Made by a program: the position numbers and the translations under genes. The notes under the pieces were generated by a model. It had not been told where the DNA came from, ran no database searches, and saw only the letters and a program-made list of their open reading frames with translations. Shown piece after piece: positions 959 through 61,593 of a stretch of DNA of 64,000 nt (the first letter of the stretch is position 1; every line of letters begins with the position of its first letter). This stretch comes from Escherichia phage ECCR664, in the sequence record OL631257.1. The stretch is one strand, 5' to 3'.

Positions 959-1530
959 TTAATTAATTAACCAAGCATTGATAAGCAAACCATATTGCGA
1001 ATAAAATTCTGGACCAAAACGAAAAATCATATCATTTATAGTATCCATAATGTAGTTCAATTTAATCATGTTTCCACACCCCATCGGTATTTGACCAAAG
1101 TCGCTGATTATCTGATCCTCGCCACAGCTTTTTGGTCGGAAGATTTTCTCATACTTCCCATCAATAATAACATCAACATATTTAAGCATTTCTAGTTGTT
1201 TAATATCTTCAAACTTGTATCCTGTCCACAACCAAATGCTTTTATTGGGATAAAGATTTTTGCTGTTTGAACAATGCAATGAATAACATCTCGGTTGTCA
1301 GGATAGAGAGGGTCTCCTCCGGTTATAGTCAATCCTTCTATATAATCATTATTCAAGCATTCAATTAATTGTTCTAGTGTTTCACCGGTGAATGGAATAC
1401 CATTTCTAGCGTTCCATGTTGATTTATTATAACACCCTTCGCATTTATGCAAACAACCTGTAACGAAAAGAACGACCCTGCAACCAGGGCCATTCACAAA
1501 ATCGCAAGGATAAAATCTATCATAATTCAT
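959..1530 (-). CDS. nrdG: anaerobic ribonucleotide reductase activating protein NrdG (radical SAM), frameshifted
   Basis: N-terminus 'MNYDRFYPCDFVNGPGCRVVLFVTGCLHKCEGC' has the radical-SAM CxxxCxxC motif; C-terminal 'WLWTGYKFEDIKQLEMLKYVDVIIDGKYEK' continues in another frame (ORFs 1192..1530 and 959..1279). Confidence 0.85.
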
Positions 1531-3343
1531 TGGTGTTTAACCCTATGCATGATTTCTTTATTTTTACCGAGATTAAATCCGCGTTCGTTCGGATTTCCAA
1601 GATAACCGCATGTTCTTCTTATAGTGTTCATCTTTTTAGGATCAGTTTCTCCACAAACTGAACAAACAAATCCGTTTTCAGTAGGAGTCATTTCATGAGT
1701 ACTTCCGCATGTAAAACATTTATCCACTGGCATATTAACACCAAAATAATCTAAATGTTGTGCAGCATAATCCCAGACAGCCTCAAGACCCTTTAAGTTA
1801 TTTTTCATATCAGGAAGTTCAACATAAGAAATGTGACCACCTGTCGCAATGAAATGATATGGCGCTTCACGAGAAATCTTTTCAAACGGAGTAATATTTT
1901 CTTCTACTGAAACGTGGAAACTATTAGTGTACCAGCCTTTATCGGTAACATCTTTTACGCTTCCATATTTTTCTGTATCAAGTTTACAGAAGCGATAACA
2001 AAGGTTTTCAGCAGGAGTAGAATATAAACTAAAAGCAAATCCAGTTCTTTCAGTCCACTGTTTAAGATGAGCATTCATTTTAGTTAAAATTTCTTGCCCA
2101 ATATCACGACCAACAAGAATATTCAATTCATGAATACCAATGTATCCTAAAGACACTGAACTTCTACCGTTTTTAAATAACTCAATTATATCGTCGTCAG
2201 GTTTAAGACGAACCCCGAATGCACCTTCTTGGTAAAGAATAGGAGCAACAGTCGCTTTAACTCCTTTTAAGGAACTAATTCTACACATCAAAGCTTCAAA
2301 ACATAAATCCATTCGTTCATTGAACAATTCGATAAATTTCTGTTCATTGAATTGTGTTCCAATATAAGAATCTAATGCGATACGAGGAAGATTCAGTGTT
2401 ACAACACCGAGATTATTACGTCCATCAAGAATTTCATTACCGGTTGAATCTTTCCATACGCTCAAGAAACTACGACAACCCATTGGAGAAACAGGAATAG
2501 ATGAGCCAGTGATAGCTTTATTGTTCTTAGCTGAAATAATATCAGGATACATTCTTTTGCTTGCACACTCTAGAGCGAGTTGCTTAATATCATAGTTCGG
2601 ATCATCTTTATAAAGATTAACACCTTCTTCAACAAACATAACAAGTTTAGGAAAAATAGGAGTTATCCCATCACGTCCAAGACCTTTAATGCGGTTTTTA
2701 AGAATTGCCTTCTGAATCATTCGTTCAGTCCAATCAGTTCCTGTTCCAAATGTTATAGTAACAAAAGGAGTTTGTCCGTTTGAACTAAAAAGAGTATTTA
2801 CTTCATATTCATAAGCTTGGAATGCATCGTATACGTCTTTTTCTGTTTTAGATTGAGCATAATTCAACGCATCAGCGATTTGCCATTTTCTGCATCTTCA
2901 ACATGTTTAGCGTATGTACGTTTAACATAAGGAGAAAGAACTTTATCGACATTTGCAAATGTAGTTCCGCCATACTGATGTGAAGCAACTTGTGCAGTAA
3001 TTTGTGCCATAATTGCAGTAGCAACACCAATCGATTTAGGCGTTTCGATTTGAGCATTGCCTAATTTAAATCCATTCTCAAGCATCCCCTTTAAATCGAC
3101 TAAACAGCAATTAGTAAACGGAAGAGCAGGAGAATAATCAATATCATGCATGTGGATAATTCCACTTTCATGCGCATTCATAATAAAAGACGGGACCATA
3201 TTTTTGGCAATGTGCTTAGACACAATACCAGCCATAAGGTCCCGTTGAGTTGGAAAAACACGAGAATCTTTATTAGCATTCTCGTTCAAAAGATCTTTAT
3301 TAGTTTTATAAATTAATCCTTCAATTTCTTTTTCAATTTTCAT
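1527..3343 (-). CDS. nrdD: anaerobic ribonucleoside-triphosphate reductase NrdD (glycyl radical enzyme), intron-less, one frameshift near 2864-2890
   Basis: ORFs 2864..3343 and 1527..2867 together match T4 NrdD end to end; glycyl-radical motif 'RRTCGYLG' and C-terminal Zn ribbon present; the break falls at a T4 run around 2886-2889. Confidence 0.95.
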
Positions 3344-3344
3344 T

Positions 3345-3812
3345 TTAAACTCTTTCTAAGCTGCTTTTGAATGAAGCTATTAATTGTGTTTTAGTATCAG
3401 ATTCATTATATTCAAATCCTCTTTGAAGCATCTCAGTCATCATTTCCTCTTTACCTAGTCTTGAGAACTCTTTAGTTTTGTCTGGAACAAAATTAGGATG
3501 GATATTATTATCAGAATAATCTTGTTTCAAATAAGCAAGAAGAGCTTCAAGCCATTCGAGGTAATCAACGTTTTGACCTTTAAGACCAGAACGGTTGAAC
3601 TTATGCTTCATTTGACCTTCTGCTGCATTGCACAGGTTACATAGTAAACCACGAACCTTACCAGCTTTTGGCCCGTTTAATTCATGGTCGTGGTCAAGAT
3701 GGTTACCTTGAACATCAGGGTCTAATTCACGGTGGCAAATAGGACACTTACCGTTCTGTGCATCATAAAATTTTTGTTTTTCTTCTTTATATTTTGCGCC
3801 TGATAATAACAT
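3345..3812 (-). CDS. 49: endonuclease VII (Holliday junction resolvase) gp49
   Basis: 155 aa 'MLLSGAKYKEEKQKFYDAQNGKC...HLDHDHELNGPKAGKVRGLLCNLCN' is near-identical to T4 gp49. Confidence 0.95.
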   Translation of the reverse strand: MLLSGAKYKEEKQKFYDAQNGKCPICHRELDPDVQGNHLDHDHELNGPKAGKVRGLLCNLCNAAEGQMKHKFNRSGLKGQNVDYLEWLEALLAYLKQDYSDNNIHPNFVPDKTKEFSRLGKEEMMTEMLQRGFEYNESDTKTQLIASFKSSLERV

Positions 3813-3841
3813 GATAAACCCTTACCTTAAATAGATAAGGG

Positions 3842-3849
3842 TATTTATA
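3842..3849 (-). promoter_or_regulatory. T4-type late promoter (TATAAATA on minus strand) upstream of gene 49
   Basis: Plus strand 'tatttata' is the reverse complement of TATAAATA, about 30 nt upstream of the gene 49 start. Confidence 0.4.
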
Positions 3850-3851: not shown

Positions 3852-3944
3852 TTAGTAAACGTTATAAAAGTCACGATGAAAACGTTTATATTGACGAATC
3901 ATTTTCTTAGTAGGACGTGTTACTGAAATAATTGAAGTCCTCAT
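3852..3944 (-). CDS. small basic protein (30 aa), copy 1 of a duplicated ORF
   Basis: 'MRTSIISVTRPTKKMIRQYKRFHRDFYNVY'; paralogous to the peptide encoded at 4455..4590 ('...TVRPTKRQLRKAKRSHRNFYREY'). Confidence 0.3.
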   Translation of the reverse strand: MRTSIISVTRPTKKMIRQYKRFHRDFYNVY

Positions 3945-4039
3945 ATTTGGATTGTTTGGGGCCCCAATCATAATAAATTTCCAGGATTTTTGCCCATTTT
4001 TCTTTCACCATAAAATAATTCAGTTTTCATAATAAACCT

Positions 4040-4454: not shown

Positions 4455-4590
4455 TCAATATTCTCTATAAAAGTTACGATGAGAACGTTTAGCTTTGCGA
4501 AGCTGACGTTTAGTAGGACGAACTGTAAATGGTTGCCCAGAGAAAAATTCGGATCGGTTTTAATAAGCAAATACCAATCGTGCTTGCCAT
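4455..4590 (-). CDS. small basic protein, copy 2 of duplicated ORF (frameshift suspected)
   Basis: Frame encodes '...GQPFTVRPTKRQLRKAKRSHRNFYREY*'; upstream ATG 'MASTIGICLLKPIRIF' is in another frame across a T-run. Confidence 0.25.
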
Positions 4591-4611
4591 TTTTAATAAA
4601 CGGTACAATAA

Positions 4612-5108
4612 TTTAACTTGCATAATAATCTCTTCCCATCTCCATATCAATTAATTCATTTATTGAAGGTTCATCATAACATGTTTCTTCGTCGTTGTAA
4701 ACTGTTTCGACGTCTGGCTCGACAGTCTCCCATCGAGCAGAATACCACGGTTTAACCCCGGAGTTTATTGAGCTCTTCATAATCAATCCAGGATTCTAGC
4801 CCTGACGGCAGGTCACATTCAATGTTCCACAGAAGCTCTTCAATGGCTTGCAGGCGATTATATTCTTCAACGGTAATGGTAACCATTGGTGCAACCGGTT
4901 CTGCCTTTTTAACCATCATATCGTTCATCAGGACGTAAAGGTCATCACGAACGACAGTGTCGTTCCAACCCCATGATTTGGCTTCGTAAGCTAATGATGA
5001 AGGGAGCACATTTAAAACTTCAATAATAGTTGGAGCATCAGGACCAAGTTCATTGGCACAAACTTCGTATACATCTTGGAAATCTTTAAGATTTAATGAA
5101 TATGTCAT
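4612..5108 (-). CDS. hypothetical protein (possible 3' frameshift; ORF 4752..5108 plus continuation)
   Basis: 118-aa ORF 4752..5108; a further coding frame continues to about 4612. Confidence 0.45.
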
Positions 5109-5367
5109 TTAAAATATTCTCGTAGTTGGTCAAAGCCACCGATCGAAGTTCCATCAGGAGCAAACACTTGAGGCATAGTCAATCCGACTTGTGATTCACG
5201 TCCAAGCTTAACAAGAAGCTCAGCAATTTTCTCATCATCGAACACACCTTTTCTGGCATAACATTAATGAATTCAAATGGCTGTTTCTTAACAGTCAGCA
5301 GTCGTTTCGCATTGTCGCAATAAATGCATTTATGAATAGTAGAGTCGTACCCGTACACTTTAAACAT
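5105..5367 (-). CDS. nrdC: thioredoxin/glutaredoxin NrdC, frameshifted
   Basis: 'MFKVYGYDSTIHKCIYCDNAKRLLTVKKQPFEFINVMPEK' matches T4 NrdC; the C-terminal 'GVFDDEKIAELL...GGFDQLREYFK' is in the -1 frame after a T4 run at 5249-5252. Confidence 0.9.
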
Positions 5368-5773: not shown

Positions 5774-6078
5774 TATAATGTTCTCTCAAATTTGTGGAAG
5801 CATTTACGGCATTTCAATTTCAAGTTATCAGTGGTCCAGTTAACCAGTTGGACTTGGATAGTTCCACATTCTGGACATGGATGTTTTGCTGCCGATTTGG
5901 CAGCATTTTCACGTCGTTCAACCATTTTCATTATTTCGTTCCATGCCGGAGGAACGAACTCTTCTTCACCGTGGATTTTATCTCGCTGAACAAATTCAAT
6001 CTTTGAACTATCGTCAATAAACTTAACCAAGCCATGATTAGTGCTCATATCAATATCCTCTAGAAGACGTAGTTTCAT
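5773..6078 (-). CDS. zinc-ribbon protein
   Basis: 101 aa with 'CPECG...CRKC' Cys4 pattern. Confidence 0.5.
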   Translation of the reverse strand: MKLRLLEDIDMSTNHGLVKFIDDSSKIEFVQRDKIHGEEEFVPPAWNEIMKMVERRENAAKSAAKHPCPECGTIQVQLVNWTTDNLKLKCRKCFHKFERTL

Positions 6079-7027
6079 TATAACACCTCAATGGCATTTC
6101 GTAAACCATCCGCTTTCGCATTCAGAACTTTTAACGATTTAGTTTGTTCTGCAATCTGGGCTTCGACTTCTTTCAGACGAGATTTGAGGTACTCACGTTC
6201 TTCTCTTAAATTATCAACTTTTTCTACTTTAGGTTCTTTAATAGGCTTAAGTTTATACATATTAGGGTTCTTCAGTTTAATTTGAATTCGAGAACTGAAT
6301 AACATTGAACCGTTATCTTCAGTTTCGCTGAACATTTCAACAACATCCATAGTCTGTAACATCATACGAAGTTTATAAGACAGCGAACGAACGGTTTTGT
6401 TGTGCTTATTAATTTCTTCAGCTTTCATGGTACCGAGATTACGTGAGTAGTAATAAGGAACCTGGATATCAATTGATAATGATGCGTTACCATTACCGGT
6501 TGGTTTGAATACTGCAGTAACCCAATCTTTAACATGAACTTTATTTGTACGACCATCACCGCCAGTGAATAATTTACGAGAATGTTTAAAAAGCATATTC
6601 ACTTGGTTATTGAATTCACAAGCAAATTTATCAGCAAATTTAGTTTCAGGAATTGTAGATAACCAATCAGCTAAATGAGTCTTTTAACATCGTTAATAAT
6701 AGTAAATTCAACCAAATCGGTTTTAGATGTCACAGATTTAATAAAGCTCGGTTTCATAAAGTTTTTAATGTTATCGCGAGCTACAGTAGAAGATAATAAA
6801 CGAGAACGTTTGAACCATTGAAGCAGCGTCCCTAATGAATGAGAATATGCATTTTGAGTATCTTTACAGATATGATTTTCTTGGCCGGTATATGTACCAA
6901 AATCGCGAAGAATACCACTTACTACATCTCGGTGTGGAACATCAAATCCTAATGAACCAGAAGCACGTTGGGCATGAACATTAGCGATAAGACCTGCAAA
7001 ATAATCAATGTAATGTGAACGTGTCAT
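6078..7027 (-). CDS. hypothetical protein (about 316 aa, frameshift about 6600-6690), coiled-coil C-terminus
   Basis: ORFs 6671..7027 and 6078..6602 are adjacent on the minus strand with coding continuity across frames. Confidence 0.45.
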
Positions 7028-7089: not shown

Positions 7090-8047
7090 TTATGATTTTA
7101 ATGCATTCATTGCGTTAAAAAGTTTAGAGTACTGCAACTGGAGATTGGTAACTACTTGTTGAGCATCACGAAGCTTAGCTTGTGCTTTGTCAAGTTCAAC
7201 AGACAGTTGGTCCATAGTGGCCTTGATTTGATTGTAATGGTAATCTTCGGCCGGAAGAAGGTCATTAGAAACATTTAGTTTTACTGCAGACAGTTTGCAC
7301 ACATTTGGCAAACCTTTAAACATTGATTTACCCGAAGTAGAATAAGCACTTAAGACTTCGGCCTGTTCAATTGGGGTCCCAGTAAGCGATGCTTCAAACA
7401 ATGCATTTTCCTTTTAAGATTTTGATAGTATTCAGAGTCTTTGTGCCACCATGGCGCAGGAACCTTTTACCAATAGATACACGAGCCTGGATAGCGATAT
7501 GGCCCTTATTCTTAATAGGGTTGATAATATTAAGCTCACGAGAATAAATCGCTTTAATCTGGTGGATATTATCACCTAAAACTTCCAACGCTTGGTGGAA
7601 TACACGAGCAACGTTATCATTCTTAGGTTTATACGTAAGAGTGAACTCATTCTCACTGATAACCATGATTTCTAACTTATCGTAAGTATATTTCAAATGT
7701 TTCATGTTAATTGCTTGAGGACGAATACGAGAAGCAATGGCCATCAGATTGTTAAGGTTATTTCGGAACTGTTTAGCGAAATATTGTCCTTCACCGCCGA
7801 TACAAAAATTACGAAGTTTCTGTTTGGCTAATAAACGGCTGAACTCACCATTTTTAATGAACTCTTTAACGGGTGTGTTAGTAACGCATTCAAATTGAGT
7901 AAACTTACGAGAAGTAATCCCATAATATGAACAGATTTCCTCAATCTCTTCAGGAGTCTTTACAGGCATACGGATAGGATTAGGTCCTGGAGTATATGCG
8001 TTCGAGGTAAATTCTTTGATAAGTTCTCTACGTGTAATAAAAGCCAT
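7090..8047 (-). CDS. hypothetical protein (about 319 aa, frameshift about 7394-7401)
   Basis: ORFs 7394..8047 and 7090..7401 overlap by 8 nt in different frames. Confidence 0.45.
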
Positions 8048-9160: not shown

Positions 9161-9373
9161 TTATGCGTGAACCGTCTTTAAACGTTCTTCAAATTTCCGA
9201 AGAGTACTAATACGTTCTGCTTTCTGTTTTGTATAGTTTGCAATACGTTCTGAAGTGAGAGCGTATCGTTCGTTTACTGTTTCTTTCATGAAGTCAGGGA
9301 TTTCACGAGAAGCTTTAATTTCATCAAACTTATCGAGTACTGCCTGGTCTTCAGCGATTAAATTTTCGTACAT
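9161..9373 (-). CDS. hypothetical protein (70 aa)
   Basis: ORF in early block. Confidence 0.4.
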   Translation of the reverse strand: MYENLIAEDQAVLDKFDEIKASREIPDFMKETVNERYALTSERIANYTKQKAERISTLRKFEERLKTVHA

Positions 9374-9434
9374 CTCGATATCTTTCTTAATGAAGTCGAT
9401 ATCTTCCTGTGTTACTTTGGATAAACGAGATGCT

Positions 9435-9686
9435 TTATCCTTTTGTACTGCTCGTTAGTTTCACGAGACCAGAATAATGTACGTTTTTGTTAGTGTTTTT
9501 GTAGACTTCCACAATTCCAACTGAATCGATGATAACAATCCAATTCCAGCGAGATTTGAAAATCTGACCTCCATCCACGGTAATCTCATTACCATAAGCA
9601 ACGTCATTAAAGAACTTGCTTTGTGCTTCAGATTTAAATTTACCGTCGTTATAATTTACCAGGTTGAAAATATCTTTAGCGTTCAT
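9435..9686 (-). CDS. hypothetical protein (83 aa)
   Basis: ORF with RBS and early promoter upstream. Confidence 0.4.
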   Translation of the reverse strand: MNAKDIFNLVNYNDGKFKSEAQSKFFNDVAYGNEITVDGGQIFKSRWNWIVIIDSVGIVEVYKNTNKNVHYSGLVKLTSSTKG

Positions 9687-9744: not shown

Positions 9745-10056
9745 CTAAAAGAAACTTTTTCGGTATTTTTCCACTGAACCAAACCGACTTCGGGATTTTT
9801 GTAATTTTTCAGATTTAAGTTTCTCTTCCTGTTCTTTCTTATATACACCCTTGTCGTACTGGAGCATCTCTATGGCATTCTTTTGCAAACGATCTAAGGT
9901 AATTAAGGCTTTAGTTTTTCCTTTCAAGGAAGAGTCCTGGCGAACCTCCTCGCTATATTGCATTGTAGAACTAACCATACGATGAGCATAGAGTTCGACT
10001 GCTGCTTTGATTTTTGCATAAAATCCATAACATATCCTCTTTGATTTGTACATCAT
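9745..10056 (-). CDS. hypothetical protein (103 aa, Lys-rich C-terminus)
   Basis: ORF. Confidence 0.4.
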   Translation of the reverse strand: MMYKSKRICYGFYAKIKAAVELYAHRMVSSTMQYSEEVRQDSSLKGKTKALITLDRLQKNAIEMLQYDKGVYKKEQEEKLKSEKLQKSRSRFGSVEKYRKSFF

Positions 10057-10166: not shown

Positions 10167-11153
10167 TTATTTCAGTAAAGTTACTTCGGAGATTTCCTCC
10201 CAACCATCTTTATCAGTTGAAATAAAATCTGCTACATAAAGAGCCGTACGTAATGATACATTGCGAAGACGAGATACGTTAGCCTTCATCCAGGACAATG
10301 CTTTGTACGTTTCAGCATCAGTCAGACCACGTTTCTGCATCATGTCAGTAGATAATATTACATCTTCAACTCGAACCATAATCTCTTCATTAGAGTGTAC
10401 TCCAAGGTCGAGATACACTGAACGAGATACTAAAGCTTGAAGGTGTGGAGCAAGTTTCGAACCACGTTCTAACTCTTTATCGATATCAACGTTTGTAATG
10501 AAAACGATAGTACCTTCAAACTCAAATTCTTTATCAATACCCTTATCATCAAGATAAGATGACGCAGTGCTCCAACAAACTTTGCGTTTATCTCCGGTAT
10601 CTAATGCTGCTTTAAGAAGGTTCAAGATATCCATATCAGAGAATACATCAACATCGTCGATTAAGAGAACGCTGTCTGCATCACGGTTGAGCCAAAGTTG
10701 TTCGTAAAGGCCAATACCAGAGATTTTACCATTAATGCTTTTGTATTTGATGAAGCCATTATCATTAGCACTATTAAGTGCTTTATCCAGAGAATACGTC
10801 TTACCAATACCGGCTGCACCTGAAATAATGAGTGAACGAATTTTGCCATCGATAATGCCATTCGTCATCATGTTCATTACTTTAAAGCGTTTGTTGATGC
10901 GAGTTTTCATATCTTCAGTGCTTTCAACAACTGCAACTGGTGATGTCTCAACTCCTTCCATTACGATGTCTGATTTGAAGACCCATACTCCACGTTCAGA
11001 ACCATCAATCATAACGAAAATTTTACCATCACCTAAGTGGGAACATTCAGGATTAAGCTTTGCTGGGAACCAGGTCTTTGTGGCGACATAAGAACCAGAG
11101 ATTTCGTTATTACGATAGATACCTTTTGATTTGAACGTTGAACATTTTATTCT
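10167..11153 (-). CDS. P-loop NTPase (Walker A 'GAAGIGKT', Walker B 'LLIDDVD'), N-terminal frameshift near 11010-11040
   Basis: ORF 10167..11012 plus an upstream coding frame that starts 'MFNVQIK' at about 11153. Confidence 0.55.
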   Translation of the reverse strand, partial: RIKCSTFKSKGIYRNNEISGSYVATKTWFPAKLNPECSHLGDGKIFVMIDGSERGVWVFKSDIVMEGVETSPVAVVESTEDMKTRINKRFKVMNMMTNGIIDGKIRSLIISGAAGIGKTYSLDKALNSANDNGFIKYKSINGKISGIGLYEQLWLNRDADSVLLIDDVDVFSDMDILNLLKAALDTGDKRKVCWSTASSYLDDKGIDKEFEFEGTIVFITNVDIDKELERGSKLAPHLQALVSRSVYLDLGVHSNEEIMVRVEDVILSTDMMQKRGLTDAETYKALSWMKANVSRLRNVSLRTALYVADFISTDKDGWEEISEVTLLK

Positions 11154-11212: not shown

Positions 11213-11223
11213 TACTTTTTAAA

Positions 11224-11247
11224 AATATTTTAACCCCTAAAGGGACC
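11224..11247 (-). terminator. hairpin terminator (UUCG tetraloop), family A copy 1
   Basis: 'gggacc cgaa ggtccc' stem-loop just downstream of 11263..11544; near-identical copy at 29648..29672. Confidence 0.45.
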
Positions 11248-11544: not shown

Positions 11545-11639
11545 ATTTACCTCAAGTGAATGGTTATTTATCTATTTATAGTAAGAATTATGATTTTCGA
11601 GATAGACTTGCTCAAGGAAATCATCCCAGAAACTCATAT

Positions 11640-12560
11640 CTACTTTTGTTGCATACCGTTCTTAGCGGCTTGTTCTGATGCTTGTTCAACTTGGTCAACG
11701 ATATCTTCTAGGAATTCTTGTACAGTTTTAAACGTATGTTTACCAAGCTTAACATCAAGAATAAATGGAGCATCCTGAAGCGGGTAAACCAGGTCACCGG
11801 TTTTGTAAATTTCCAATAATTGAAGTCCACCACGACATGCATGACTCAATGCTTTCCAGTCAATACCTTCGTTGGCTTCCGCCTTACGAGCACGTTCACC
11901 ATAGTTCTCTTCCAGTTTAACCAGGATGGCATTGAACTCTTTATTGGTTAACGTGTCTTGGAATTTACGGTCTAATAGATTATAGAATGTTTGCTTACCT
12001 GTTTTCTCGTTTTCGGTTTCAACCCATGAAGCAAATTCACCTACAGGCAGAACATTCTTCATATGTGATAAACGAATTACCGCACCATTATCAAAGTATT
12101 GTCCCCATTCATTAGAACGTTTAAGGGCTTGACGAAGAACAGCCAGTCGAGAACCCTTGACACCATATTTAGAAGCTTGCTTACGGACATACCCTAAATA
12201 AGATTTCATGTTAGTGGTATAGAAACGAGACCTGTTATCTTGAATATACTTCCATACATCAGGCAAATCAGATTTAACTACTAGACTTGGTGGGGTGTGA
12301 AGCATATCTAATGCGACGGTTTCACCATCTGCAGCTAGTTTAAAGAAATATTTGAGACTATACAACTCGTGGTCCACGTCGTCTTTTGTGTTCTTAGAAG
12401 CAGTGTTGTTAGTGTTCTTGCTCATGTGTTCTTTAACGTTACCGGTCAAGATATCACGAGCATGAGGGACATAAATTTCTTTAAAATCGACGTCAGATTC
12501 AGGAGTAGACGTTCCATAAAGGTGGCTACCAAAGTAGCCTTTCATAATTGTTTTCATCAT
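11640..12560 (-). CDS. Pol-beta-superfamily nucleotidyltransferase-fold protein
   Basis: 'FGSHLYGTSTPESDVDF' fits the hG[GS]x9-13 DxD NTase signature; a third acidic strand 'ETVALDMLH' follows; 306 aa. Confidence 0.5.
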   Translation of the reverse strand: MMKTIMKGYFGSHLYGTSTPESDVDFKEIYVPHARDILTGNVKEHMSKNTNNTASKNTKDDVDHELYSLKYFFKLAADGETVALDMLHTPPSLVVKSDLPDVWKYIQDNRSRFYTTNMKSYLGYVRKQASKYGVKGSRLAVLRQALKRSNEWGQYFDNGAVIRLSHMKNVLPVGEFASWVETENEKTGKQTFYNLLDRKFQDTLTNKEFNAILVKLEENYGERARKAEANEGIDWKALSHACRGGLQLLEIYKTGDLVYPLQDAPFILDVKLGKHTFKTVQEFLEDIVDQVEQASEQAAKNGMQQK

Positions 12561-13030: not shown

Positions 13031-13049
13031 AATAATTCCTTATTTCAAA

Positions 13050-13581
13050 GTCGGGATAATAGAATCGAGATAAGCTTTAAGAGCAACTGCTTCATCTTTG
13101 TCTAATGTAATGATATGTTGACGAAGGTCATCAATTTGGCGAATAACTACAACATCACCGTCTTCATAAGAAGGATTAACGCTCAGGACTGTTGTATAGT
13201 CAGGGTTGTCCTGATTTGTAATAAAAGCATTACGACATTTAGCCCATTGAAGTTTGGCCTTTTGGCTGTTTCAGATTCCATGAATTCTTTCACTTTAGCG
13301 ACGAATGTTTTCCAATTATTAATAGAAAAACATTCGTCTTCTGTTTCGATATTAACCCCACTATAAAGTCCGTGATAAAAACGAACTTGAAGGTCTTCAT
13401 CAATGTTAATTACAGATGCATGGCCTGGTGGATTGAGTTTCAAAATCTTGTCCAGTTCCATAGGAAGAATAGTAACAGCATCATCTTCTTGCGTCAGAAC
13501 GTAAGCATAACCGCGTTTTTCAATACATAAATCACCGAACAACTCTGTTGTTTCAATTACAGTTTTCATATTATTCACCAA
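13050..13581 (-). CDS. hypothetical protein (frameshift about 13260)
   Basis: ORF 13183..13581 plus a continuing frame to about 13050. Confidence 0.4.
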
Positions 13582-13915: not shown

Positions 13916-14151
13916 TACCGATTGTGTTTTAAATGTTGATAAAGTTCTTCAACTTGTTTAGGGTCCAAAACAATTAAGTCATTTTCTTGACGAAGATAAA
14001 TCCATCCCTTATCCCCAGGGCCATTTTTACAAAACATCACCGTCGTCATATCGTCATCTTCAGCGCTTTCAGGTAAAAGTTCAAGTACACCGTCTTCAGA
14101 TTTTCCAGTATAATCGTAAAGCATAATATCCTCACATAATCTCGTTAACAT
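13915..14151 (-). CDS. hypothetical protein (78 aa)
   Basis: ORF. Confidence 0.4.
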   Translation of the reverse strand: MLTRLCEDIMLYDYTGKSEDGVLELLPESAEDDDMTTVMFCKNGPGDKGWIYLRQENDLIVLDPKQVEELYQHLKHNR

Positions 14152-14389
14152 ACATTTGCAATTCGGTGTGCGTATCAGCCATCTTTTTCATAGCTCTGTT
14201 AATGTCGATGTCTCCATCTTCGCAACCATGAGCATTTTCCCAATCAGATACCGCATTAGCGTACTCTTCAATCAAAAACATTAACTTAGAAATTTTTTCT
14301 TTACGTGTCATAATGTTCTCCTCTAGTAAGTAAAGACTACTATAACACAACCTGAGGAAAAGTAAACTGCTAAATGCCAAAAGCCCCAA
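14132..14389 (-). CDS. hypothetical protein (85 aa; true start possibly internal)
   Basis: ORF. Confidence 0.4.
   Translation of the reverse strand: MGLLAFSSLLFLRLCYSSLYLLEENIMTRKEKISKLMFLIEEYANAVSDWENAHGCEDGDIDINRAMKKMADTHTELQMYVNEIM
14339..14367 (-). promoter_or_regulatory. T4-type early promoter
   Basis: Minus strand GTTTAC, 17 nt, TATAGT. Confidence 0.5.
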
Positions 14390-14411: not shown

Positions 14412-14713
14412 TTAGATAGATGTAGGCTCTAATTTTATTTTCATGAACTCAGCAAATTGTCTGGCGGTTTTTATGCCTTGTTCATGACATTCAAATGCAT
14501 CATCACAGGGACTATTTTTGTAATGCTTTGCCATATACTTATAGAATTTTTCAGAATTCTCGACATTTTGAATTTCAAACAAAGTATATACGTTTTTAAT
14601 CCCTGATTCCATAAAGTTATCAAAATATGGGTCGATATGTGCAGTACCAACGATAGGAGTTGTTGCTGCAAAAACCCCAGCATCGCTATGACAGCTATCG
14701 CTCTTAAGGCCAT
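14412..14713 (-). CDS. rI: lysis inhibition regulator RI (membrane/periplasmic antiholin-type), frameshifted
   Basis: 'MALRAIAVIAMLGF' then frame change into 'AATTPIVGTAHIDPYFDNFMESGIKNVYTLFEIQN...KIKLEPTSI'; matches T4 RI. Confidence 0.85.
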
Positions 14714-14965: not shown

Positions 14966-15545
14966 TTATAACAACCCTGTCAAATCATTCCAATGCTTCC
15001 GGCATAATGACACGTATCTATCAGTATCACCAATTTCAATTTGACTGCCATCTGTAATTGGAAGTCCGTCTTCCGTGACTCTAGCTACCATTGTGGCCTT
15101 TTACCACAATGACAGACACCTTTAAGTTCAACAAGCTTATCGGCAATAGCCATTAATGCTTGAGAACCTTCAAATAGATTACCTTTAAAATCTGTTCGTA
15201 GTCCATATGCCATTACTGGCACATTGTATACGTCAACAATACGACTAAGTTGATACACCTTTTCAGTAGTTAAGAACTGAGCTTCGTCAACAAATACACA
15301 ATGAATATCCTTTGTGCTGCAGCCCATTTATAGAATTCAAAGATGTCCATGTCTTTTGTAATTATATTGGCATCCTGACGAATACCAATACGAGAGACTA
15401 TTTCACCTTTTGAATCACGAGTATCAATAGCCGGTTTAAGAACTAATACACCCATGCCACGTTCTTTATAGTTATGTGCGGCAGTAAGTAATGAAGCAGA
15501 CTTACCAGCATTCATAGCGGCATATGTAAAAATTAAACTAGCCAT
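14966..15545 (-). CDS. tk: thymidine kinase, frameshifted (at least 2 indels)
   Basis: P-loop '[22 protein letters not shown]', 'VFVDEAQFL', C-terminal 'CHCGKK..' Zn motif across ORFs 15270..15545 and 15085..15327 and a third frame. Confidence 0.9.
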
Positions 15546-17957: not shown

Positions 17958-17986
17958 TTTTGATTTCTCCTCTAGTTGACAGGTCT

Positions 17987-19077: not shown

Positions 19078-19100
19078 ATAACCTCAATTAGAAAATAAAT

Positions 19101-19391: not shown

Positions 19392-19401
19392 TGCATTCCA
19401 A

Positions 19402-44600: not shown

Positions 44601-44745
44601 ACGACGTAAACTGATGAGCCCATTATTTGATGCGTCCGGAACAACATTCTCTAGATTTAGAGATTTGGTTGAACAACGGTTAATCGATAATGTAGGAAAT
44701 CCAAGAGACCCCGTGAATCCACCACAGGTTAAATTAGATGAATGA
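41648..44745 (+). CDS. 7: baseplate wedge initiator gp7, frameshifted near 43390-43405
   Basis: ORFs of 584 and 448 aa sum to 1032 aa, the T4 gp7 length. Confidence 0.9.
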
Positions 44746-46684: not shown

Positions 46685-48487
46685 TGAAACAAAATATTAA
46701 AATTGGTAACGTCGTTGATGACGGACAAGGCGATTACCTTCGTCGAGGTGGTGAAAAATAAATGAGAACTTTGACGAAATCTATTATGAATTAGGTGATG
46801 GTGAAGTTCCTTATGCCGCTGGCGCATGGAAGACTTATGATGCGGCTGATGGTCTTAATCTTAATGCTGCTTGGGGTAAATCTTATGCAATTAATACTAC
46901 TTCTGGACGAGTTTCAGTAAATCTTCCTAAAGGGACAATTGCAGACTATAATAAAGTTATTCGTGCTCGTGACGTATTTGCAACTTGGAACATTAACCCT
47001 GTTACTTTAATTCCGGCAAACGGAGACACGATTAAAGGTTCTTCATCTCCGGTAGAAATTAACGTCCAGTTCTCTGATTTAGAATTAGTTTATTGTGCTC
47101 CTGGACGTTGGGAATACATCAAGAACAAACAAATTGATAAAATAGTTAGCTCTGACATTAGTAATGTTGCTCGTAGAGAATATCTGGTTGAAACCCAAGG
47201 TCAGACCGATTTCATGGATGTTTTTAACGGGACATCTTATAACGTTAACAACATTCGCGTAAAACATCGTGGCAACGAATTGTATTATGGCGATGTATTC
47301 AGTGATAATAGTGATTTTGGTTCACCAGGCGATAATCCTGGTGAACTGGTTGCACTTGATGGATTTAATATTAGATTACGCCAACCATGTAACGTTGGGG
47401 ATACTGTACAAATTGAGACATTCCTAGATGGTGTTTCTCAGTGGCGTAGTTCATATACTCGTCGCCAAGTTCGCATTTTAGATAGTAAATTGACCGCTAA
47501 AAGTCTATTGACGGAAGTATTTACGTCACTGATTTGAGTACGTTCAGGTCTATTCCATTTACAGCATTTGGTATTAACCCTACAGAACCACCTAACCCGA
47601 ATTCATTAGAAGTTCGCTTCAATGGTATTCTCCAAGAATTAGCTGGTACTGTTGGAACTCCTATTTTCCGTTGTGAAGGTGTGGATGCTGATTCTGAAGA
47701 GTCATGCACTAATCTCGGTGGGACGTGGACTCAATCGTATACAGATTATGCGATTGAATATACTGATAATATCCCTAGCGCAATTCTATTTGACCGTCAA
47801 TTTGAAGACCAAGACATTATTACCATCACATGGTTTAATAACGATTTAGGAACTCTTCTTGAAATGGAAGAAATCCTTGATGTCGCTGATGAGAAATATG
47901 TTTCTCAAGGGTCTAACATTGAAATTACTGGTGACGTTGCATTAACTGATTTCGATAAAATTGGATGGCCTAATGTAGAACCTGTTCCTAAGTATGAACG
48001 TGAATTCTCGACTATCTCAGCAATATTTGATACAATTTATCCTGTCGGGACTATTTACGAAAATGCGGTTAACCCTAATAATCCGGCCACTTATTTAGGT
48101 TTTGGTTCGTGGAAAATTTGGGGACAAGGCAAAGTATTAGCCGGTTGGAATGATGACGCATCGGATCCTAATTTTGCATTAAATAATAATGACCTTGACA
48201 TCAATGGTAACCCTACTCATACCGCAGGTGGTACCGTTGGTGTAACAACTATCACATTAGAAAATGCTGATTTACCAGCTACACAAACCGATGAAAAGGT
48301 TCTTATTTCTGATGATAATGGTACAGTAATTATAGGCGGTTGTCAATATGACCCAGATGCAGAAGGTCCTATTTACACTAAATATCGTGAAGACCATGCA
48401 AAGACTAATGGATCTCATGTTCCAGCACGTTCTATAACTAATATTCAGCCATCTATAACTGTATACCGTTGGGTAAGGATTGCATAA
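46684..48487 (+). CDS. 10: baseplate wedge/short tail fiber attachment gp10, frameshifted (at least 3 indels)
   Basis: '[23 protein letters not shown]' start; ORFs 47214..47537 and 47534..48487; total length fits T4 gp10 (602 aa). Confidence 0.9.
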
Positions 48488-49143
48488 TGACTGTACTTAA
48501 TACAAAGGCGGGAGTTATTTCCCGTCATGCTGATTTTGAATTACAGAAAAATCCAGCTCAAATCGATGTTTTAAACAACCAAGCTGTAGGTTCCGTGACT
48601 ATTTCTCAGTTAGCTCGCGGTTTTTATGATGCTAACGTAGAATCTGCAATAAATGATGTCCATAATATGGCACGAGCTGATATTGGTACTGTTGTCACAA
48701 ACACTTCAGGCGTATCGCCTGAAGGTGCAGCACAAGTTGATTATTGGACTTTTTCCGGTGATGTTCTCGACGATACTTTGGACACTGGAACGCCAGTCGT
48801 TATTAACGTATTTGGACTTGCCGTTAAAGCAACAATCGGTATGACTGATAACGAATTAACGGCACAAGTTCGTATAGCTTTACAAGAGGCCATTGCTAAT
48901 CAAATCGCTATTTCTTCTTATAAAGACCATCCAACTGAAGGTAATAAACTTCAGGTGACATATTTAGATAACCAACGTCATGTGTTGCCAACATATGCTT
49001 CGTTTGGTGTAACAATTTCGCAAGAAATTTTGTCTGAAGCAAAATCCGGATACGGAACATGGAATTTATTGGGTGCCCAAACGGTTACTCTTGATAACCA
49101 TGATACTCCTACCGTTTTCTACCACTTTGTGAGAGCCTCATGA
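48487..49143 (+). CDS. 11: baseplate wedge subunit gp11
   Basis: '[13 protein letters not shown]...[27 protein letters not shown]' matches T4 gp11; 218 aa. Confidence 0.9.
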
Positions 49144-50723
49144 GTAATAACAATACATACCAACACGTTTCAAACGAATCCATTTACGTTGAATTCGACC
49201 CTACGGGGACGAATTTTCCAGATACAGTCACTAATGTCCAAGCCGCATTAGCTGCTATTTCTCCTTCAGGTGTTAATGGTGTACCGGAAGCAACAACTAC
49301 TACACCAGGAATTATTCAAATAGCTACTCCACAAGAAGTTATTGATGGATTAGATAATAATAAAGCTGTTACTCCAGCATCACTGAATGCTCGTCTACAA
49401 TATCCTAATGCAACCGAAACTCAATATGGCTTAACTCGTTATGCTACTGAAGATGAAGCAGTAACCGGAACTATTGACGATGCATCAATTACTCCGCTTA
49501 AATTGAATCAAAAAATAGACAATGTATTTCAGACAAAAGTGTCAACAGAAGCAACAAATGGTGTAATTAAAATTTCAACTTCTGCTGCCGCATTAGCTGG
49601 TTCTGATGATACAACGGCAATGACTCCGTTAAAAACGCAACAATTAGCAATTAAACTTATTTCACAAATTGCTCCAAATAATAGTGACGCCACCGAATCT
49701 ATTACAGGTGTTGTTCGTTTGGCTACAGTTGCTCAAGCACAACAAGGCACCCTGCGTGAAGGCTATGCAATTTCGCCTTATACCTTTATGAATTCAGTAG
49801 CATCAGAAACTAATAAAGGCGTCGTTAAACTAGGGACACAGACTGAAGTAAATAGTAACAACTCTTCAGTTGTAGTGACCGGCGCAACATTAAACGGGCG
49901 TGGGGCTACAACTTCTTTACGTGGAGTTGTTCGTTTAACTACACAAGCGGGTAGCCAATCAGGTGGTGATGGTTCTTCTGCTCTTGCTTGGAATGCTGAT
50001 GTTATCCACCAACGAGGCGGACAAACTATTAATGGCACACTTCGCATTAATAATACGTTGACGGTTGGTTCTGGCGGCGCTAATATAACTGGTAATGTCA
50101 ATATGACAGGTGGTTATATTCAAGGCAATCGTATTGTGACTCAAAATGAATTAGACCGAATTCTTCCAGTTGGCGCTATTACAATGTGGGCTGCAGATAG
50201 TTTACCGAGTTCCGACTGGCGCTTCTGTCACGGTGGGACTGTTTCTGCTTCAGAATGTCCAGTATATGCTTCCAGAATTGGGACACGATATGGTGGTAGT
50301 TCTTCTAACCCAGGCTTGCCTGATATGCGTGGATTATTTGTTCGTGGCTCAGGTCGTGGCTCTCACTTAACAAATCCAAATGTTAATGGTAATGACCAGT
50401 TTGGTAAGCCTAGATTAGGTGTAGGTTGTACTGGTGGATATGTTGGTGAAGTACAGAAACAACAGATGTCTTATCATAAACACGCTGGCGGATTTGGTGA
50501 GCATGATGATTCTGGAGCATTCGGTAATACCCGTAGATCAAATTTTGTTGGTACACGTAAAGGACTTGACTGGGATAACCGTTCATACTTCACCAATGAC
50601 GGATATGAAATTGACCCGGCATCACAACGAAATTCCAAATATACATTAAATCGTCCTGAATTAATTGGAAATGAAACACGCCCATGGAACATTTCTTTAA
50701 ACTATATCATTAAGGTAAAATAA
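49140..50723 (+). CDS. 12: short tail fiber gp12
   Basis: 527 aa, identical in length to T4 gp12; repetitive fibrous N-terminal half. Confidence 0.9.
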
Positions 50724-52194: not shown

Positions 52195-53129
<935 letters not shown>

Positions 53130-54769: not shown

Positions 54770-57093
<2,324 letters not shown>

Positions 57094-57120: not shown

Positions 57121-59102
57121 ATGGCACTTCTCTCTCCGGGCGTTGAGCTCAAAGAAACTACCGTACAGAGTACTGTAGTTAATAACTCCACTGGTACTGC
57201 TGCCCTGGCTGGAAAATTCCAATGGGGACCTGCATTCCAGATTAAACAAATCACTGATGAAGTTGCATTAGTTGATATGTTTGGTACTCCTAATACGGAT
57301 ACAGCAGATTATTTCATGTCTGCTATGAACTTCCTTCAATACGGTAATGACCTTCGTGTTGTACGCGCAGTTGATCGTGATACTGCTAAGAACTCATCTC
57401 CTGTAGCAGGCAATATTGAATTCACAATCTCTGCCGCTGGTAGTAACTATGCGGTTGGTGATAAAATTATCGTTAAGTATTTGACCGAAACTGTTGAAGC
57501 AGATGGTTATGTCACTTCAGTTGATGTCGATGGTAAAATTCTTAACATTTATATCCCAACCGGTAAAATTATTGCTCGTGCAAAAGAAATTAATGAATAT
57601 CCGGCATTGGGTTCTAACTGGACCGCCGAAGTTGCCAGTTCTTCTTCTGGACTCTCTGGCGTTATTACAATTGGTTCTATCGTAACCGATTCAGGTATTC
57701 TGTTGACTGAAGTTGAAACTTCAGAAGAAGCTATTACTTCTCTAACTTTCCAAGAATCTATTAAAAATATGGTGTCCCAGGCGTAGTTGCTCTTTATCCT
57801 GGTGAACTTGGCGACCAGCTCGAAATTGAAATCGTATCTAAAGCAGACTATGACAAAGGTGCTTCAGCCCAGTTAAAAATTTATCCTGATGGCGGTACTC
57901 GTGCATCTACTGCTAAAGCAATCTTTGGATATGGCCCACAAACTGATGACCAATATGCAATTATCGTTCGTCGTAACGATGCTGTAGTCCAGAGCGTAGT
58001 TCTTTCTACTAAACGTGGTGAACGAGATATTTATGGTAGTAATATCTTTATTGATGATTTCTTTGCTAAAGGCGCAAGCAATTATATTTTCGCTACTGCA
58101 CAAGGTTGGCCAAAAGGTTTCTCTGGCGTAATCAAACTGAGTGGTGGCTTATCATCTAATGAAACGGTCGACGCTGGTGATTTAATGGAAGCTTGGGATT
58201 TGTTTGCTGACCGCGAATCTGTTAATGCGCAGTTGTTTATTGCCGGTTCTTGTGCAGGTGAATCTTTAGAAGTTGCTTCTACAGTTCAGAAACATGTTGT
58301 AGCAATTGGTGATTCTCGCCAAGATTGCTTGGTTCTTTGCTCACCACCACGTTCAACTATAGTCGGTATTCCTGTTAATCGTGCAGTTGATAATCTTGTT
58401 GATTGGCGTACTGCATCAGGAACTTACACTGATAATAACTTTAATGTAAGTTCTACTTATGCTGCTATTGACGGTAACTATAAATATCAATATGACAAAT
58501 ATAATGATGTGAATCGTTGGGTTCCATTAGCTGCTGATATCGCTGGTCTTTGTGCTCGTACAGACAATATTTCTCAGCCTTGGATGTCTCCGGCTGGTTA
58601 TAACCGTGGACAAATTCTTAACGTTATTAAGCTTGCAATTGAAACTCGTCAACCACAACGTGATCGTTTGTATCAGGAAGCTATTAACCCTGTTACTGGT
58701 ACCGGTGGTGATGGATATGTTCTGTATGGTGATAAAACTGCCACTTCTGTTCCTTCACCATTTGACCGTATTAACGTTCGTCGTTTGTTCAATATGGTTA
58801 AAACGAACATTGGTTCAGCATCTAAATATCGCCTGTTTGAATTGAACAACGCATTTACCCGTTCTTCTTTCCGTACAGAGACTTCTCAATATCTACAGGG
58901 TATTAAAGCTCTCGGTGGTGTATATAACTTTAAAGTTGTTTGTGATACTACCAATAACACCCCAGCAGTTATCGACCGTAATGAATTTGTAGCTACTTTC
59001 TACTTACAACCTGCCCGCTCGATAAATTATATTACGTTGAACTTTGTAGCAACAGCAACTGGTGCCGATTTCGACGAACTGATTGGTGCTGTAGGTGGTT
59101 AA
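57121..59102 (+). CDS. 18: tail sheath protein gp18, frameshifted (about 2 indels)
   Basis: 'MALLSPGVELKETTVQSTVVNNSTGTAALAGKFQWGPAFQI' start; the span equals 659 codons as in T4 gp18. Confidence 0.9.
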
Positions 59103-59214: not shown

Positions 59215-59706
59215 ATGTTTGTAGATGACGTAACTCGTGCCTTCGAATCTGGTGATTTCGCTCGCCCTAACCTGTTCGAAGTAGAAATCTCTTATCTTGG
59301 GCAAAACTTTAGCTTCCAGTGTCGTGCTACGGCTCTTCCTGCTGCGATCGTTGAAAAGGTTCCTGTTTCTTATATGAACCGTAAAATTAACGTGGCAGGT
59401 GACCGTACATTTGACGATTGGACTATTACAGTAATGAATGACGATGCTCATAGTATTCGTCAGAAATTTGTTGATTGGCAAGGTATTGCAGCAGGACAAG
59501 GTAATGAAATTACCGGTGGTAAACCTGCTGAATATAAAAGACTGCTATCGTTCGTCAATTTGCTCGTGATGCTAAAACGGTCACTAAAGAAGTTGAAATT
59601 GTTGGCTTGTGGCCTACTAACGTCGGCGAAGTATCTCTTGACTGGGATTCGAATAACGAGATTGAAACGTTCGAAGTAACTCTTGCTCTTGATTGGTGGG
59701 AATAAT
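59215..59706 (+). CDS. 19: tail tube protein gp19, frameshifted about 59540
   Basis: 'MFVDDVTRAFESGDFARPNLFEVEISYLGQNF'; C-terminal '...TFEVTLALDWWE' in a shifted frame. Confidence 0.9.
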
Positions 59707-59753
59707 CTGGTTGGGGAGAAATCCCCAGCTTCCCGTGATGACGGAGAAGTCCA

Positions 59754-59761
59754 TATAAATA
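59754..59761 (+). promoter_or_regulatory. T4 late promoter (TATAAATA) for gene 20
   Basis: Exact TATAAATA 29 nt upstream of the ATG. Confidence 0.6.
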
Positions 59762-59789
59762 TAACTATAATTCCCATTCGGAGAATACA

Positions 59790-61383
59790 ATGAAATTTAA
59801 TATCTTAAGTTTGTTTGCTCCATGGGCAAAAATGGACGAACGTGATTACAAAGACCAAGAAAAGAAAATTTAGAATCGATCACCACACCAAAATTAGACG
59901 ACGGCGCTAAAGAATACGAAGTATCTGAAAATGAAGCACAGCAAACATATAATGCTATGTTTCAGAGAATGTTCGGTAGCCAAGAACCAGGGCTCAAATC
60001 AACGCGTGAATTAATCGATACGTATCGAAATTTGATGACGAACTATGAAGTGGATAATGCAGTCTCTGAAATAGTTTCCGATGCTATCGTATATGAAGAT
60101 GATACAGAAGTCGTTTCTATAAATTTAGACAACACAAAATTTAGTCCAAATATCAAATCAATGATGTTGGATGAATTTAACGAAGTGTTAAATCATTTAT
60201 CTTTCCAACGTAAAGGTTCAGACCATTTTAGACGTTGGTACGTAGATTCTCGAATTTTCTTCCATAAAATTATTGACCCTAAACGCCCTAAAGAAGGTAT
60301 TAAAGAGCTTCGTCGTTTAGACCCACGTCAAGTTCAATATGTCCGTGAAGTTATTACAACCACTGAAGCTGGTGTTAAAATAGTCAAGGGTTATAAAGAA
60401 TATTTCATTTATGACACATCACACGAATCTTATGCTTGTGATGGTCGCATATATGAAGCTGGCACAAAAATAAAAATCCCTAAAGCCGCGATTGTTTATG
60501 CCCATTCTGGTTTAGTTGATTGTTGTGGTAAAAATATCATTGGTTATTTGCATCGGGCTATTAAGCCGGCGAACCAATTAAAACTTCTTGAAGATGCCGT
60601 CGTAATTTATCGTATTACTCGTGCTCCAGATCGTCGTGTATGGTACGTTGATACAGGTAATATGCCTTCAAGAAAAGCAGCAGAACATATGCAACATGTT
60701 ATGAATACGATGAAAAACCGTATTGCATATGATGCCACTACAGGCAAGATTAAAACCAACAGCATATTATGTCGATGACCGAAGATTATTGGTTACAACG
60801 ACGTGATGGTAAAGCAGTAACAGAAGTTGATACATTACCGGGTGCAGATAATACTGGAAATATGGAAGATGTACGTTGGTTCCGTAATGCGCTTTATATG
60901 GCTTTACGTATTCCTATTACCCGTATTCCAAGCGACCAAGGTGGTATACAGTTTGATGCTGGTACTTCTATTACACGAGATGAATTGTCATTTGGTAAAT
61001 TTATTCGTGAGCTGCAACATAAATTTGAAGAGATATTCCTAGACCCGCTTAAAACTAATTTAATTCTTAAAGGAATTATTACAGAAGATGAGTGGAATGA
61101 TGAAATAAATAATATTAAGATAAAATTTCATCGGGATAGTTATTTCTCGGAATTAAAGGATGCTGAGATTCTGGAGCGTCGCATTAATATGCTTCAGATG
61201 GCCGAACCATTTATTGGTAAATATATTTCTCACAGAACAGCTATGAAAGATATTCTTCAGATGTCTGACGAGGAAATTGAACAAGAGGCTAAGCAAATTG
61301 AAGAAGAGTCGAAAGAGGCTCGTTTCAAGACCCCGACCAAGAACAAGAGGATTTTTAATGGACGATTTAATTCAAGCTATTAA
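59790..61383 (+). CDS. 20: portal vertex protein gp20, frameshifted (at least 2 indels); 3' end uncertain (61357 or 61383)
   Basis: '[26 protein letters not shown]' start then ORFs 59957..60778 and 60769..61383. Confidence 0.9.
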
Positions 61384-61593
61384 ATCAAACGACCTCGTTG
61401 CTACTCGAAAGTTTTTGAAAGTGCAATGGCAGAAAAAACGGTTCGTTTGATTGAAGCACGCAAAGCAGAAATCGCTTCTCAATTTTTGATTGAAGGCGAA
61501 GAACCTGAAGAAGAAAAGAAAGCTAAAGCTTCGGAAGACGACGCTGATGAAGGCGATGACGACGAAGACGAAGATGATGAGGACGATGAATAA
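61358..61593 (+). CDS. 67: prohead core protein gp67, frameshifted at a T-run 61412-61416
   Basis: '[18 protein letters not shown]' start; acidic C-terminus '[11 protein letters not shown]'. Confidence 0.75.

Follow-up and report, generated by a model that had tools for sequence, protein, structure and literature searches.

Homopolymer under-calling very probably accounts for the pervasive frame breaks in a Mosigvirus genome segment from Escherichia phage ECCR664

Background

Homopolymer indels in consensus sequences of the nanopore R9 type are well documented as a cause of frameshifted and fragmented gene calls in bacterial genomes (PMC9262707). Phage assemblies are affected as well, and in one of them two homopolymer errors left a DNA polymerase gene annotated in three pieces (PMC10438801). 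Here, we analysed a stretch of 64,000 bases from Escherichia phage ECCR664 (sequence record OL631257.1), hereafter the window, in which dozens of conserved genes are split across reading frames at short homopolymer runs. Such runs can also change frames for biological reasons. In T4 they are true hot spots of replication-slippage frameshifting, as known from rII. The sequence A-AAA-AAG is the slippery sequence of Escherichia coli dnaX and of insertion sequence (IS) elements, and in insect endosymbionts transcriptional slippage rescues poly(A) frameshifts. We consider it very nearly certain that the frame breaks of the window would stem from systematic under-calling of homopolymers in sequencing or consensus building, an artefact rather than biology, with nothing biologically new behind it.

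Results and discussion

The window was compared, as three thirds, with 50,697 phage records by megablast. More than 100 records of T-even phages matched it at 95–99% identity, and the top matches came from the genus Mosigvirus (JS09, HX01, mar005P1, JN02, Mizar, and ATK47; 96.5–98.5% identity and 97–100% query cover). The identity of 96–98.5% over 97–100% of the window to JS09, HX01, mar005P1, JN02, and others places it in this genus of the Straboviridae, subfamily Tevenvirinae. Three finished genomes served as references, namely JS09 (NC_024124.2), JN02 (MT782071.1), and Mizar (PV714129.1). We projected the 108 annotated genes of JS09 onto the window by nucleotide alignment, from which all gene identities were taken. 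Collinearity of the genes with JS09 extended from nrdH up to the beginning of gp23, and only 52 of the 64,000 bases aligned to none of the three references. The window is an ordinary, functional segment of a Mosigvirus genome (an RB69/JS09-like T-even phage) with conventional gene content.

The gapped alignment with JS09 contained 149 gap openings, including 90 one-base deletions and 18 one-base insertions in the window, and most of the latter fell within short divergent patches in which they were compensated. Relative to JS09, JN02, and Mizar, the isolated deletions of one or two bases numbered 84 (77 coding and 7 intergenic) and extended from position 744 to position 62932. They were evenly spread along the window, with no clustering (chi-square p = 0.49). 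At least one deletion was found in each of 49 genes, and 48 of the 101 comparable genes had no intact open reading frame (ORF), among them terminase, portal, sheath, tube, and baseplate genes.

The original prediction, made from the letters of the window, had reported pervasive single-base frameshifts at homopolymers, and this proved correct, with 77 of the 84 deletions in JS09 runs of at least four bases. All 22 genes that it named as split (nrdD, nrdG, nrdC, rI, tk, regB, denV, and genes 1, 3, 4, 5, 5.4, 7, 9, 10, 13, 17, 18, 19, 20, 22, and 67) have lost the frame of their annotated JS09 counterparts. Its extent had been underestimated. About 30 broken genes had been counted, and the range given (1527–61593), although it does contain such sites, is narrower than the true span, from 744–747 in gene 55.8 to 62928–62932 in gp22. 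Four of the five example sites (in nrdD, nrdC, gp5.4, and gp67) were exact, but the position given for tk (15089–15092) reads catt and lies 10 bases from the true run at 15099–15102. T4 had been used as the comparator; the genes are indeed intact in relatives, but the proper comparison is with the JS09/RB69 group of Mosigvirus, at 96–98% identity.

The direction of the length changes was strongly skewed. Among runs of at least four bases, the window was shorter than each of the three references at 71–75 sites and longer at 1–2. Pairs of finished Mosigvirus genomes, taken as controls at about 2.5–3% divergence, differed at 6–8 one-base sites in such runs, split evenly by direction. Where JS09, JN02, and Mizar agreed with one another, the window was shorter at 67 sites and longer at a single one (binomial p = 5e-19), which is far beyond chance and is the directional bias expected of under-calling. 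Runs of exactly six bases were likewise depleted (11 in the window against 48–50 in each reference), and the longest homopolymer of the window has seven bases. The few IMG/VR contigs that matched two tested sites, in nrdD and gp18, all displayed the longer run.

Shortening depended steeply on the length of the run in the reference, rising from none of 2411 runs of three bases to 6 of 600 runs of four (1%), 36 of 215 runs of five (17%), and 31 of 41 runs of six (76%), and affecting both of the two runs of seven or eight bases. No reference run of at least four bases was lengthened in this count. Sequence context mattered as well. Five A with a G after them (CTTTTT when read on the opposite strand) were shortened at 28 of 54 sites (52%), compared with 5 of 157 (3%) in other contexts (p = 3.5e-15), and each strand of the window showed the effect (13/20 and 15/34). 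Under-calling of five-base runs was nearly restricted to the duplex AAAAAG/CTTTTT, as exemplified by the sites at 2886–2889, 39590–39593, and 56418–56421. A k-mer-specific signature of this kind might point to a particular base-caller or platform.

In the scenario that we propose, around 80 runs would have dropped one base, and rarely two, during sequencing or consensus building. The runs hit would be mostly of A or T, five or six bases long in the real genome, and above all those within AAAAAG/CTTTTT. Each dropped base would shift the apparent frame, giving a split appearance to 48 of 101 genes that would almost certainly be intact in the phage. A technical cause is suggested because the deletions depend on length and context, are indifferent to coding and strand, and are absent from relatives, and because selection on the genes is intact and their repair is complete.

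The last two points bear on the first alternative, namely that the deletions are real and the genome is degraded or defective, either a remnant in decay or the outcome of a mutator polymerase prone to frameshifts, with half of its genes turned into pseudogenes. A genome with 48 of 101 genes broken fits this description, and so does the location of the changes in runs of the type that are slippage hot spots in T4. However, when read in the frame of JS09, the ratio of non-synonymous to synonymous substitution rates (dN/dS) was 0.046 downstream of the shifts, as low as upstream of them in the same genes, where the frame is kept (0.053), and in genes with no break (0.080). We also considered substitutions private to the window, at sites where all three references agree. 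Their synonymous to non-synonymous counts were 110:20 downstream of the shifts, 113:13 in in-frame segments, and 108:26 in intact genes. Downstream of the shifts, 85% of the private substitutions were synonymous, and none created a stop codon in the JS09 frame; about three-quarters of random changes are expected to be non-synonymous. Strong purifying selection still acts on the ancestral frame downstream of the shifts.

Repair of the window led to the same picture. Once the one- and two-base deletions had been reinserted, 95 of the 101 genes were intact instead of 53, at exact JS09 length and with the native stop. The remaining six were open once compensating +1/-1 alignment gaps in divergent patches were left unfilled, so that only isolated deletions were reinserted. 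Reinserted bases alone therefore restored all 101 comparable genes, and no other lesions were found among them after this repair. The sequences of gp12, the denV fragment, and the patches in nrdC.5 and e.5 had also been considered as frameshifted; they were rejected, being divergent or replaced segments with an in-frame net change.

Where a pseudogenised genome should display relaxed selection and mixed lesions, the window thus displayed a dN/dS of 0.05, no private stops, and full-length genes upon repair. Furthermore, contractions outnumbered expansions by 67 to 1, whereas slippage yields both directions, and the rate of loss was the same in coding and intergenic sequence, which indicates no selection against the deletions even in essential genes. 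The window has no host flank, and its genes follow the same order throughout as in lytic phages. T4 genetics has established that gp5, gp7, gp9, gp10, gp13, gp17, gp18, gp19, gp20, and gp22 are each essential for the assembly of T4-type virions. Because the broken set includes such individually essential genes, a phage with the literal sequence of the window could not be propagated. We regard a degraded genome as very unlikely. Still more improbable is a replicating T-even phage, or a dominant defective population, in which the short runs are genuine and some 75 coding frameshifts are tolerated through genome-wide recoding or complementation, or an origin of these runs from an extreme mutator that only contracts them.

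The indifference of the deletions to gene expression bears on the remaining alternative, in which real deletions are compensated across the genome, at A/T runs, by slippage in transcription or by frameshifting of the ribosome. Shortening affected 63 of 236 coding and 6 of 22 intergenic runs of at least five bases (Fisher p = 1). Rates were alike on the strand of the window (A5, 15/94; T5, 18/117) and on the sense strand (A5, 22/136; T5, 10/59). Together with the uniform spread of the sites, these equal rates describe a process blind to biology. The AAAAAG context resembles the A-AAA-AAG slippery sequence of dnaX and IS elements, the affected runs mostly consist of A when read on the sense strand, and rescue by poly(A) slippage in endosymbionts provides a precedent. 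However, the excess of sense A runs mirrors only their abundance (136 A5 against 59 T5), and in the AAAAAG/CTTTTT context runs were lost alike whether the mRNA has an A run (19/39) or a U run (9/13), and in intergenic sequence too, so that orientation is irrelevant. The runs left in the window have three to five bases, and in one case seven, compared with the nine or so or more required for efficient polymerase slippage, and no slippery tract of that length was found, although downstream stimulatory structures were not searched for. Since a +1 or -2 shift would be required at about 75 sites, several per gene, while the three finished relatives (96–98% identity) are in frame at every one of them and share no conserved recoding site, genome-wide recoding is barely conceivable. 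Taken together, the direction of the changes, their dependence on length and context, the selection on the ancestral frame, and the outcome of repair all favour the sequencing or assembly indels proposed by the original prediction over pseudogenisation or programmed frameshifting. Its claim that the downstream frame restores each protein up to its native stop was likewise borne out, as all comparable genes open at native stops upon repair.

Some observations weigh against homopolymer under-calling as the source of the breaks. The artefact is deduced from the comparison of sequences and was not seen directly in reads. Seven deletions lie outside runs of at least four bases, comprising three changes from two bases to one and four cases in which a single base between two runs was lost, and a simple run-length model covers them only indirectly. 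At these sites, a real substitution would likely first have made a run of six, which was later under-called. We ascribe them to such runs because the Mizar allele at 36255–36259 and the JN02 allele at 61976–61980 are runs of six, shorter in the window. Three intergenic sites (11216, 29262, and 32645) have a run length that is also found in another reference. Finally, five-base runs displayed a weak skew in codon phase (p = 0.02), which was not found among six-base runs. We attribute this skew to the AAAAAG context rather than to translation because AAA-AAG (Lys-Lys) codon pairs supply much of that context. A link to translation was considered and rejected, given that the context acts equally in antisense.

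A strand-symmetric, k-mer-specific, length-dependent process that only contracts runs and ignores reading frames has the look of base-calling or consensus error. The profile fits data of the nanopore or flow-based type because substitutions are clean, there are only deletions, their onset is at five to six bases, and they depend on k-mers. The data were probably generated with a long-read chemistry of the nanopore type or with a flow-based one (454/Ion Torrent) and assembled without polishing by short reads.

Affected genes and sites

In the following, changes are given from the run of the references to that of the window. All affected genes from gene 55.8 to gp4 are on the minus strand. The first site of the window is in gene 55.8 (737–950), with T5 to T4 at 744–747 and A5 to A4 at 896–899. 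It is followed by nrdG (1062–1530), with T5 to T4 at 1144–1147 and T6 to T5 at 1257–1261, and by nrdD (1527–3343), in which a change from T5 to T4 at 2886–2889 splits the gene into ORFs at 1527–2867 and 2864–3343; the matching IMG/VR contig has T5. The same T5 to T4 change occurred in the gp49 endonuclease VII gene (3340–3812) at 3365–3368, in nrdC (5105–5367) at 5249–5252, in nrdC.3 (6078–7027) at 6682–6685, and twice in nrdC.5 (7090–8047), at 7412–7415 and 7465–7468, the latter gene also containing a natural divergent patch at 7150–7354. In the homologue of RB69ORF087c (3852–4030), TTTGTT of JS09 became T5 at 3997–4001, while that of RB69ORF089c (4455–4623) displayed A6 to A5 at 4543–4547 and T6 to T5 at 4590–4594.

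Further along, nrdC.8 (9161–9686) had T5 to T4 at 9441–9444 and T6 to T5 at 9484–9488, and nrdC.9 (9745–10028) had four changes from T6 to T5, at 9756–9760, 9766–9770, 9796–9800, and 10011–10015. Two bases were lost in nrdC.10 (10167–11145; T6 to T4 at 11124–11127). Single changes from T5 to T4 were found in the nrdC.11 nucleotidyltransferase gene (11573–12557) at 11644–11647 and in mobD.1 (13040–13569) at 13260–13263, and one from A6 to A5 in rI (14412–14689) at 14670–14674. Meanwhile, tk (14966–15545) displayed T5 to T4 at 15099–15102 and T4 to T3 at 15311–15313, and regB (17501–17959) displayed T6 to T5 at 17745–17749 and A5 to A4 at 17767–17770. The run at 19111–19114 in vs.7 (19084–19391) is T6 in JS09, T5 in Mizar, and T4 in the window. 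In vs.8 (19388–19925), A6 became A5 at 19406–19410, and a C was lost after a T5 run at 19648–19652. A change from A4 to A3 was found in denV (20592–21004) at 20825–20827.

Several homologues of RB69 ORFs displayed T6 to T5, namely those of RB69ORF130c (22312–22547) at 22467–22471, RB69ORF132c (23035–23720) at 23247–23251, RB69ORF133c (23722–24025) at 23776–23780, with an additional A5 to A4 at 23969–23972, RB69ORF135c (25345–25583) at 25492–25496, and RB69ORF137c (25853–26124) at 25944–25948. That of RB69ORF134c (24365–25320) had A5 to A4 at 24909–24912. Within e.5 (27138–27739), T6 became T5 at 27339–27343. The same change in frd.3 (28759–28985), at 28762–28766, lies four bases before the native stop and lengthens the ORF to 28731. 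The homologue of RB69ORF146c (29264–29567) displayed A5 at 29320–29324 in place of AAGAAA in JS09 and T6 to T5 at 29539–29543. A gene similar to JS98 gp135 (29677–30295) had T8 to T7 at 29923–29929 and T5 to T4 at 30123–30126, and the homologue of RB69ORF151c (31269–31783) had T5 to T4 at 31501–31504.

The last affected genes of the minus strand are gp1, gp3, and gp4. The gene for gp1, a deoxynucleoside monophosphate (dNMP) kinase (33750–34481), had A5 to A4 at 34002–34005 and A5 to A3 at 34467–34469, and that for gp3 (34535–35118) had A4 to A3 at 34907–34909. In gp4 (36045–36489), four runs were shortened: A6 (the Mizar allele) to A5 at 36255–36259, A5 to A4 at 36396–36399, T7 to T5 at 36451–36455, and T5 (the Mizar allele) to T4 at 36459–36462.

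The affected genes from gp5 onwards are on the plus strand. The baseplate hub and lysozyme gene gp5 (37180–38857) had T5 to T4 at 38255–38258 and 38443–38446. Its neighbour gp5.1 (38903–39374) displayed T5 to T4 at 38928–38931 and A6 to A5 at 39281–39285, and the PAAR spike tip gene gp5.4 (39377–39669) displayed A5 to A4 at 39590–39593. One change from A6 to A5 at 43382–43386 splits gp7 (41648–44745) into ORFs at 41648–43402 and 43399–44745. Three sites were found in gp9 (45815–46684), with T6 to T5 at 45821–45825, A5 to A4 at 46022–46025, and GG to G at 46357, and two in gp10 (46684–48487), with A6 to A5 at 46754–46758 and A5 to A4 at 47499–47502. In gp11 (48487–49143), the changes from T6 to T4 at 48534–48537 and from A6 to A5 at 48547–48551 add up to a net loss of three bases, leaving the ORF open with a short stretch garbled.

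Downstream of these, gp13 (52204–53129) had T6 to T5 at 52381–52385, and the large terminase gene gp17 (55257–57090) had A5 to A4 at 56418–56421 and 56778–56781. The tail sheath gene gp18 (57121–59102) displayed A6 to A5 at 57763–57767, where two IMG/VR contigs have A6, and the tail tube gene gp19 (59215–59705) displayed A5 to A4 at 59536–59539. Three sites were found in the portal gene gp20 (59790–61358), with A5 to A4 at 59860–59863 and 60752–60755 and CC to C at 61326. T6 became T5 in gp67 (61358–61593) at 61412–61416. In gp68 (61593–62016), A6 became A5 at 61932–61936, and a JN02-like A6 became A5 at 61976–61980, which reads as GG to G relative to JS09. The last site of the window, A6 to A5 at 62928–62932, is in the scaffold gene gp22 (62691–63502).

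Seven sites are intergenic. At 11234–11237, C4 replaces the C5 of all three references. The run at 14379–14382 is A4 in the window, A5 in Mizar, and A6 in JS09, and that at 30340–30344 is A5 in the window, A6 in JS09 and Mizar, and A8 in JN02. Other sites vary among the references themselves. T5 at 11216–11220 is shared with JN02 and Mizar, JS09 having T6, and is probably a real polymorphism rather than an error. T4 at 29262–29265 and T3 at 32645–32647 are both shared with JN02 (T5 and T4 in JS09, respectively) and are possibly real polymorphisms too. The remaining site (A4 to A3 at 30468–30470) falls within a transfer RNA (tRNA) call: in the raw window, ARAGORN predicted a 94-base tRNA-Stop(tta), resembling an ochre suppressor, at 30409–30502 on the minus strand. 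This call was gone in the repaired window and had no counterpart at the corresponding position of JS09, JN02, or Mizar, and we rejected the suppressor-like tRNA as spurious. It exemplifies the warning, given along with the frameshifts, that apparent novelties of the window must be read with the errors in mind.

Natural variation in the window

The window also differs from its relatives in other respects. The short tail fibre gene gp12 (49140–50723) lacks 90 bases near the C-terminus compared with JS09 and is divergent at 50571–50637. It is an intact ORF of 1584 bases and 527 amino acids, equal in length to those of JN02 and Mizar, and the difference reflects natural variation between alleles at the receptor-binding end. 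The cluster of internal protein genes and the denV fragment at 20067–20590 is unlike that of JS09, with Ip10 and ORF125c of JS09 missing, and it includes two segments (20092–20134 and 20576–20584) that aligned to none of the three references. A hypervariable Ip region is typical of T-even phages, and these differences fit it.

Between e.6 and frd.3, a segment of about 290 bases (28460–28750) is present in JN02 and not in JS09, and contains a putative ORF of 50 amino acids at 28582–28734 on the minus strand. In the window (31033–31189), JS09, and JN02, tRNA-Arg(tct) adjoins tRNA-Met(cat), whereas Mizar (31507–32460 of its own sequence) has between them an extra tRNA-Asn and a homing-endonuclease-like ORF (annotated with NUMOD3 / DUF559 Pfam matches). 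This insert is a presence/absence polymorphism of a mobile element. Where JS09 has about 340 bases of small ORFs (113287–113627; VR7ORF105c together with parts of the homologues of SP18gp102 and JS98gp095), the window has about 70 bases at 13956–14029, in line with the usual mosaicism of accessory genes. Finally, short and highly divergent patches with an in-frame net length change relative to JS09 were found at 7150–7354 in nrdC.5 and at 11463–11482 in the homologue of VR7ORF099c. These are probably recombination mosaics, unconnected to the homopolymer errors.

Conclusions

These findings matter only as a warning about sequence quality. Gene calls in the window are unreliable in half of the cases, including "novel" short ORFs, fusions, truncated proteins, and odd RNA genes, and they need to be derived anew after correction of the homopolymers against reads or close relatives. 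The error profile offers a practical guide for targeted correction: runs of six or more bases nearly always lack one base, and about half of the AAAAAG/CTTTTT runs are shortened.

Among phages, the window is closest to the Mosigvirus relatives JS09, JN02, Mizar, and the RB69 group. It shares with them a collinear gene content and order from nrdH to gp23, and its 101 comparable genes are all open after repair, most of them at the exact length of JS09. It differs from them by about 2.6–3% substitutions, mainly synonymous, by the usual mosaicism (the C-terminus of gp12, the internal-protein cluster, small accessory ORFs, and the presence or absence of homing endonucleases), and by 84 small deletions that none of the references has.

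The likeness to dnaX-type frameshifting and poly(A) slippage is superficial, consisting in frame changes at A/T runs and in the enrichment of AAAAAG in the reference at the affected sites. Unlike in those systems, the effect in the window is strand-symmetric and includes intergenic and U runs, the runs are too short, single genes carry multiple breaks, and the three compared relatives are in frame at the same sites. The errors of unpolished nanopore R9-type, 454, or Ion Torrent data are a much closer match: they too are confined to homopolymers, dominated by deletions, and steeply dependent on length and context, and they fragment gene calls in otherwise accurate sequence. Nothing essential separates the window from them; the onset at five to six bases and the bias towards AAAAAG/CTTTTT are the features specific to its data.

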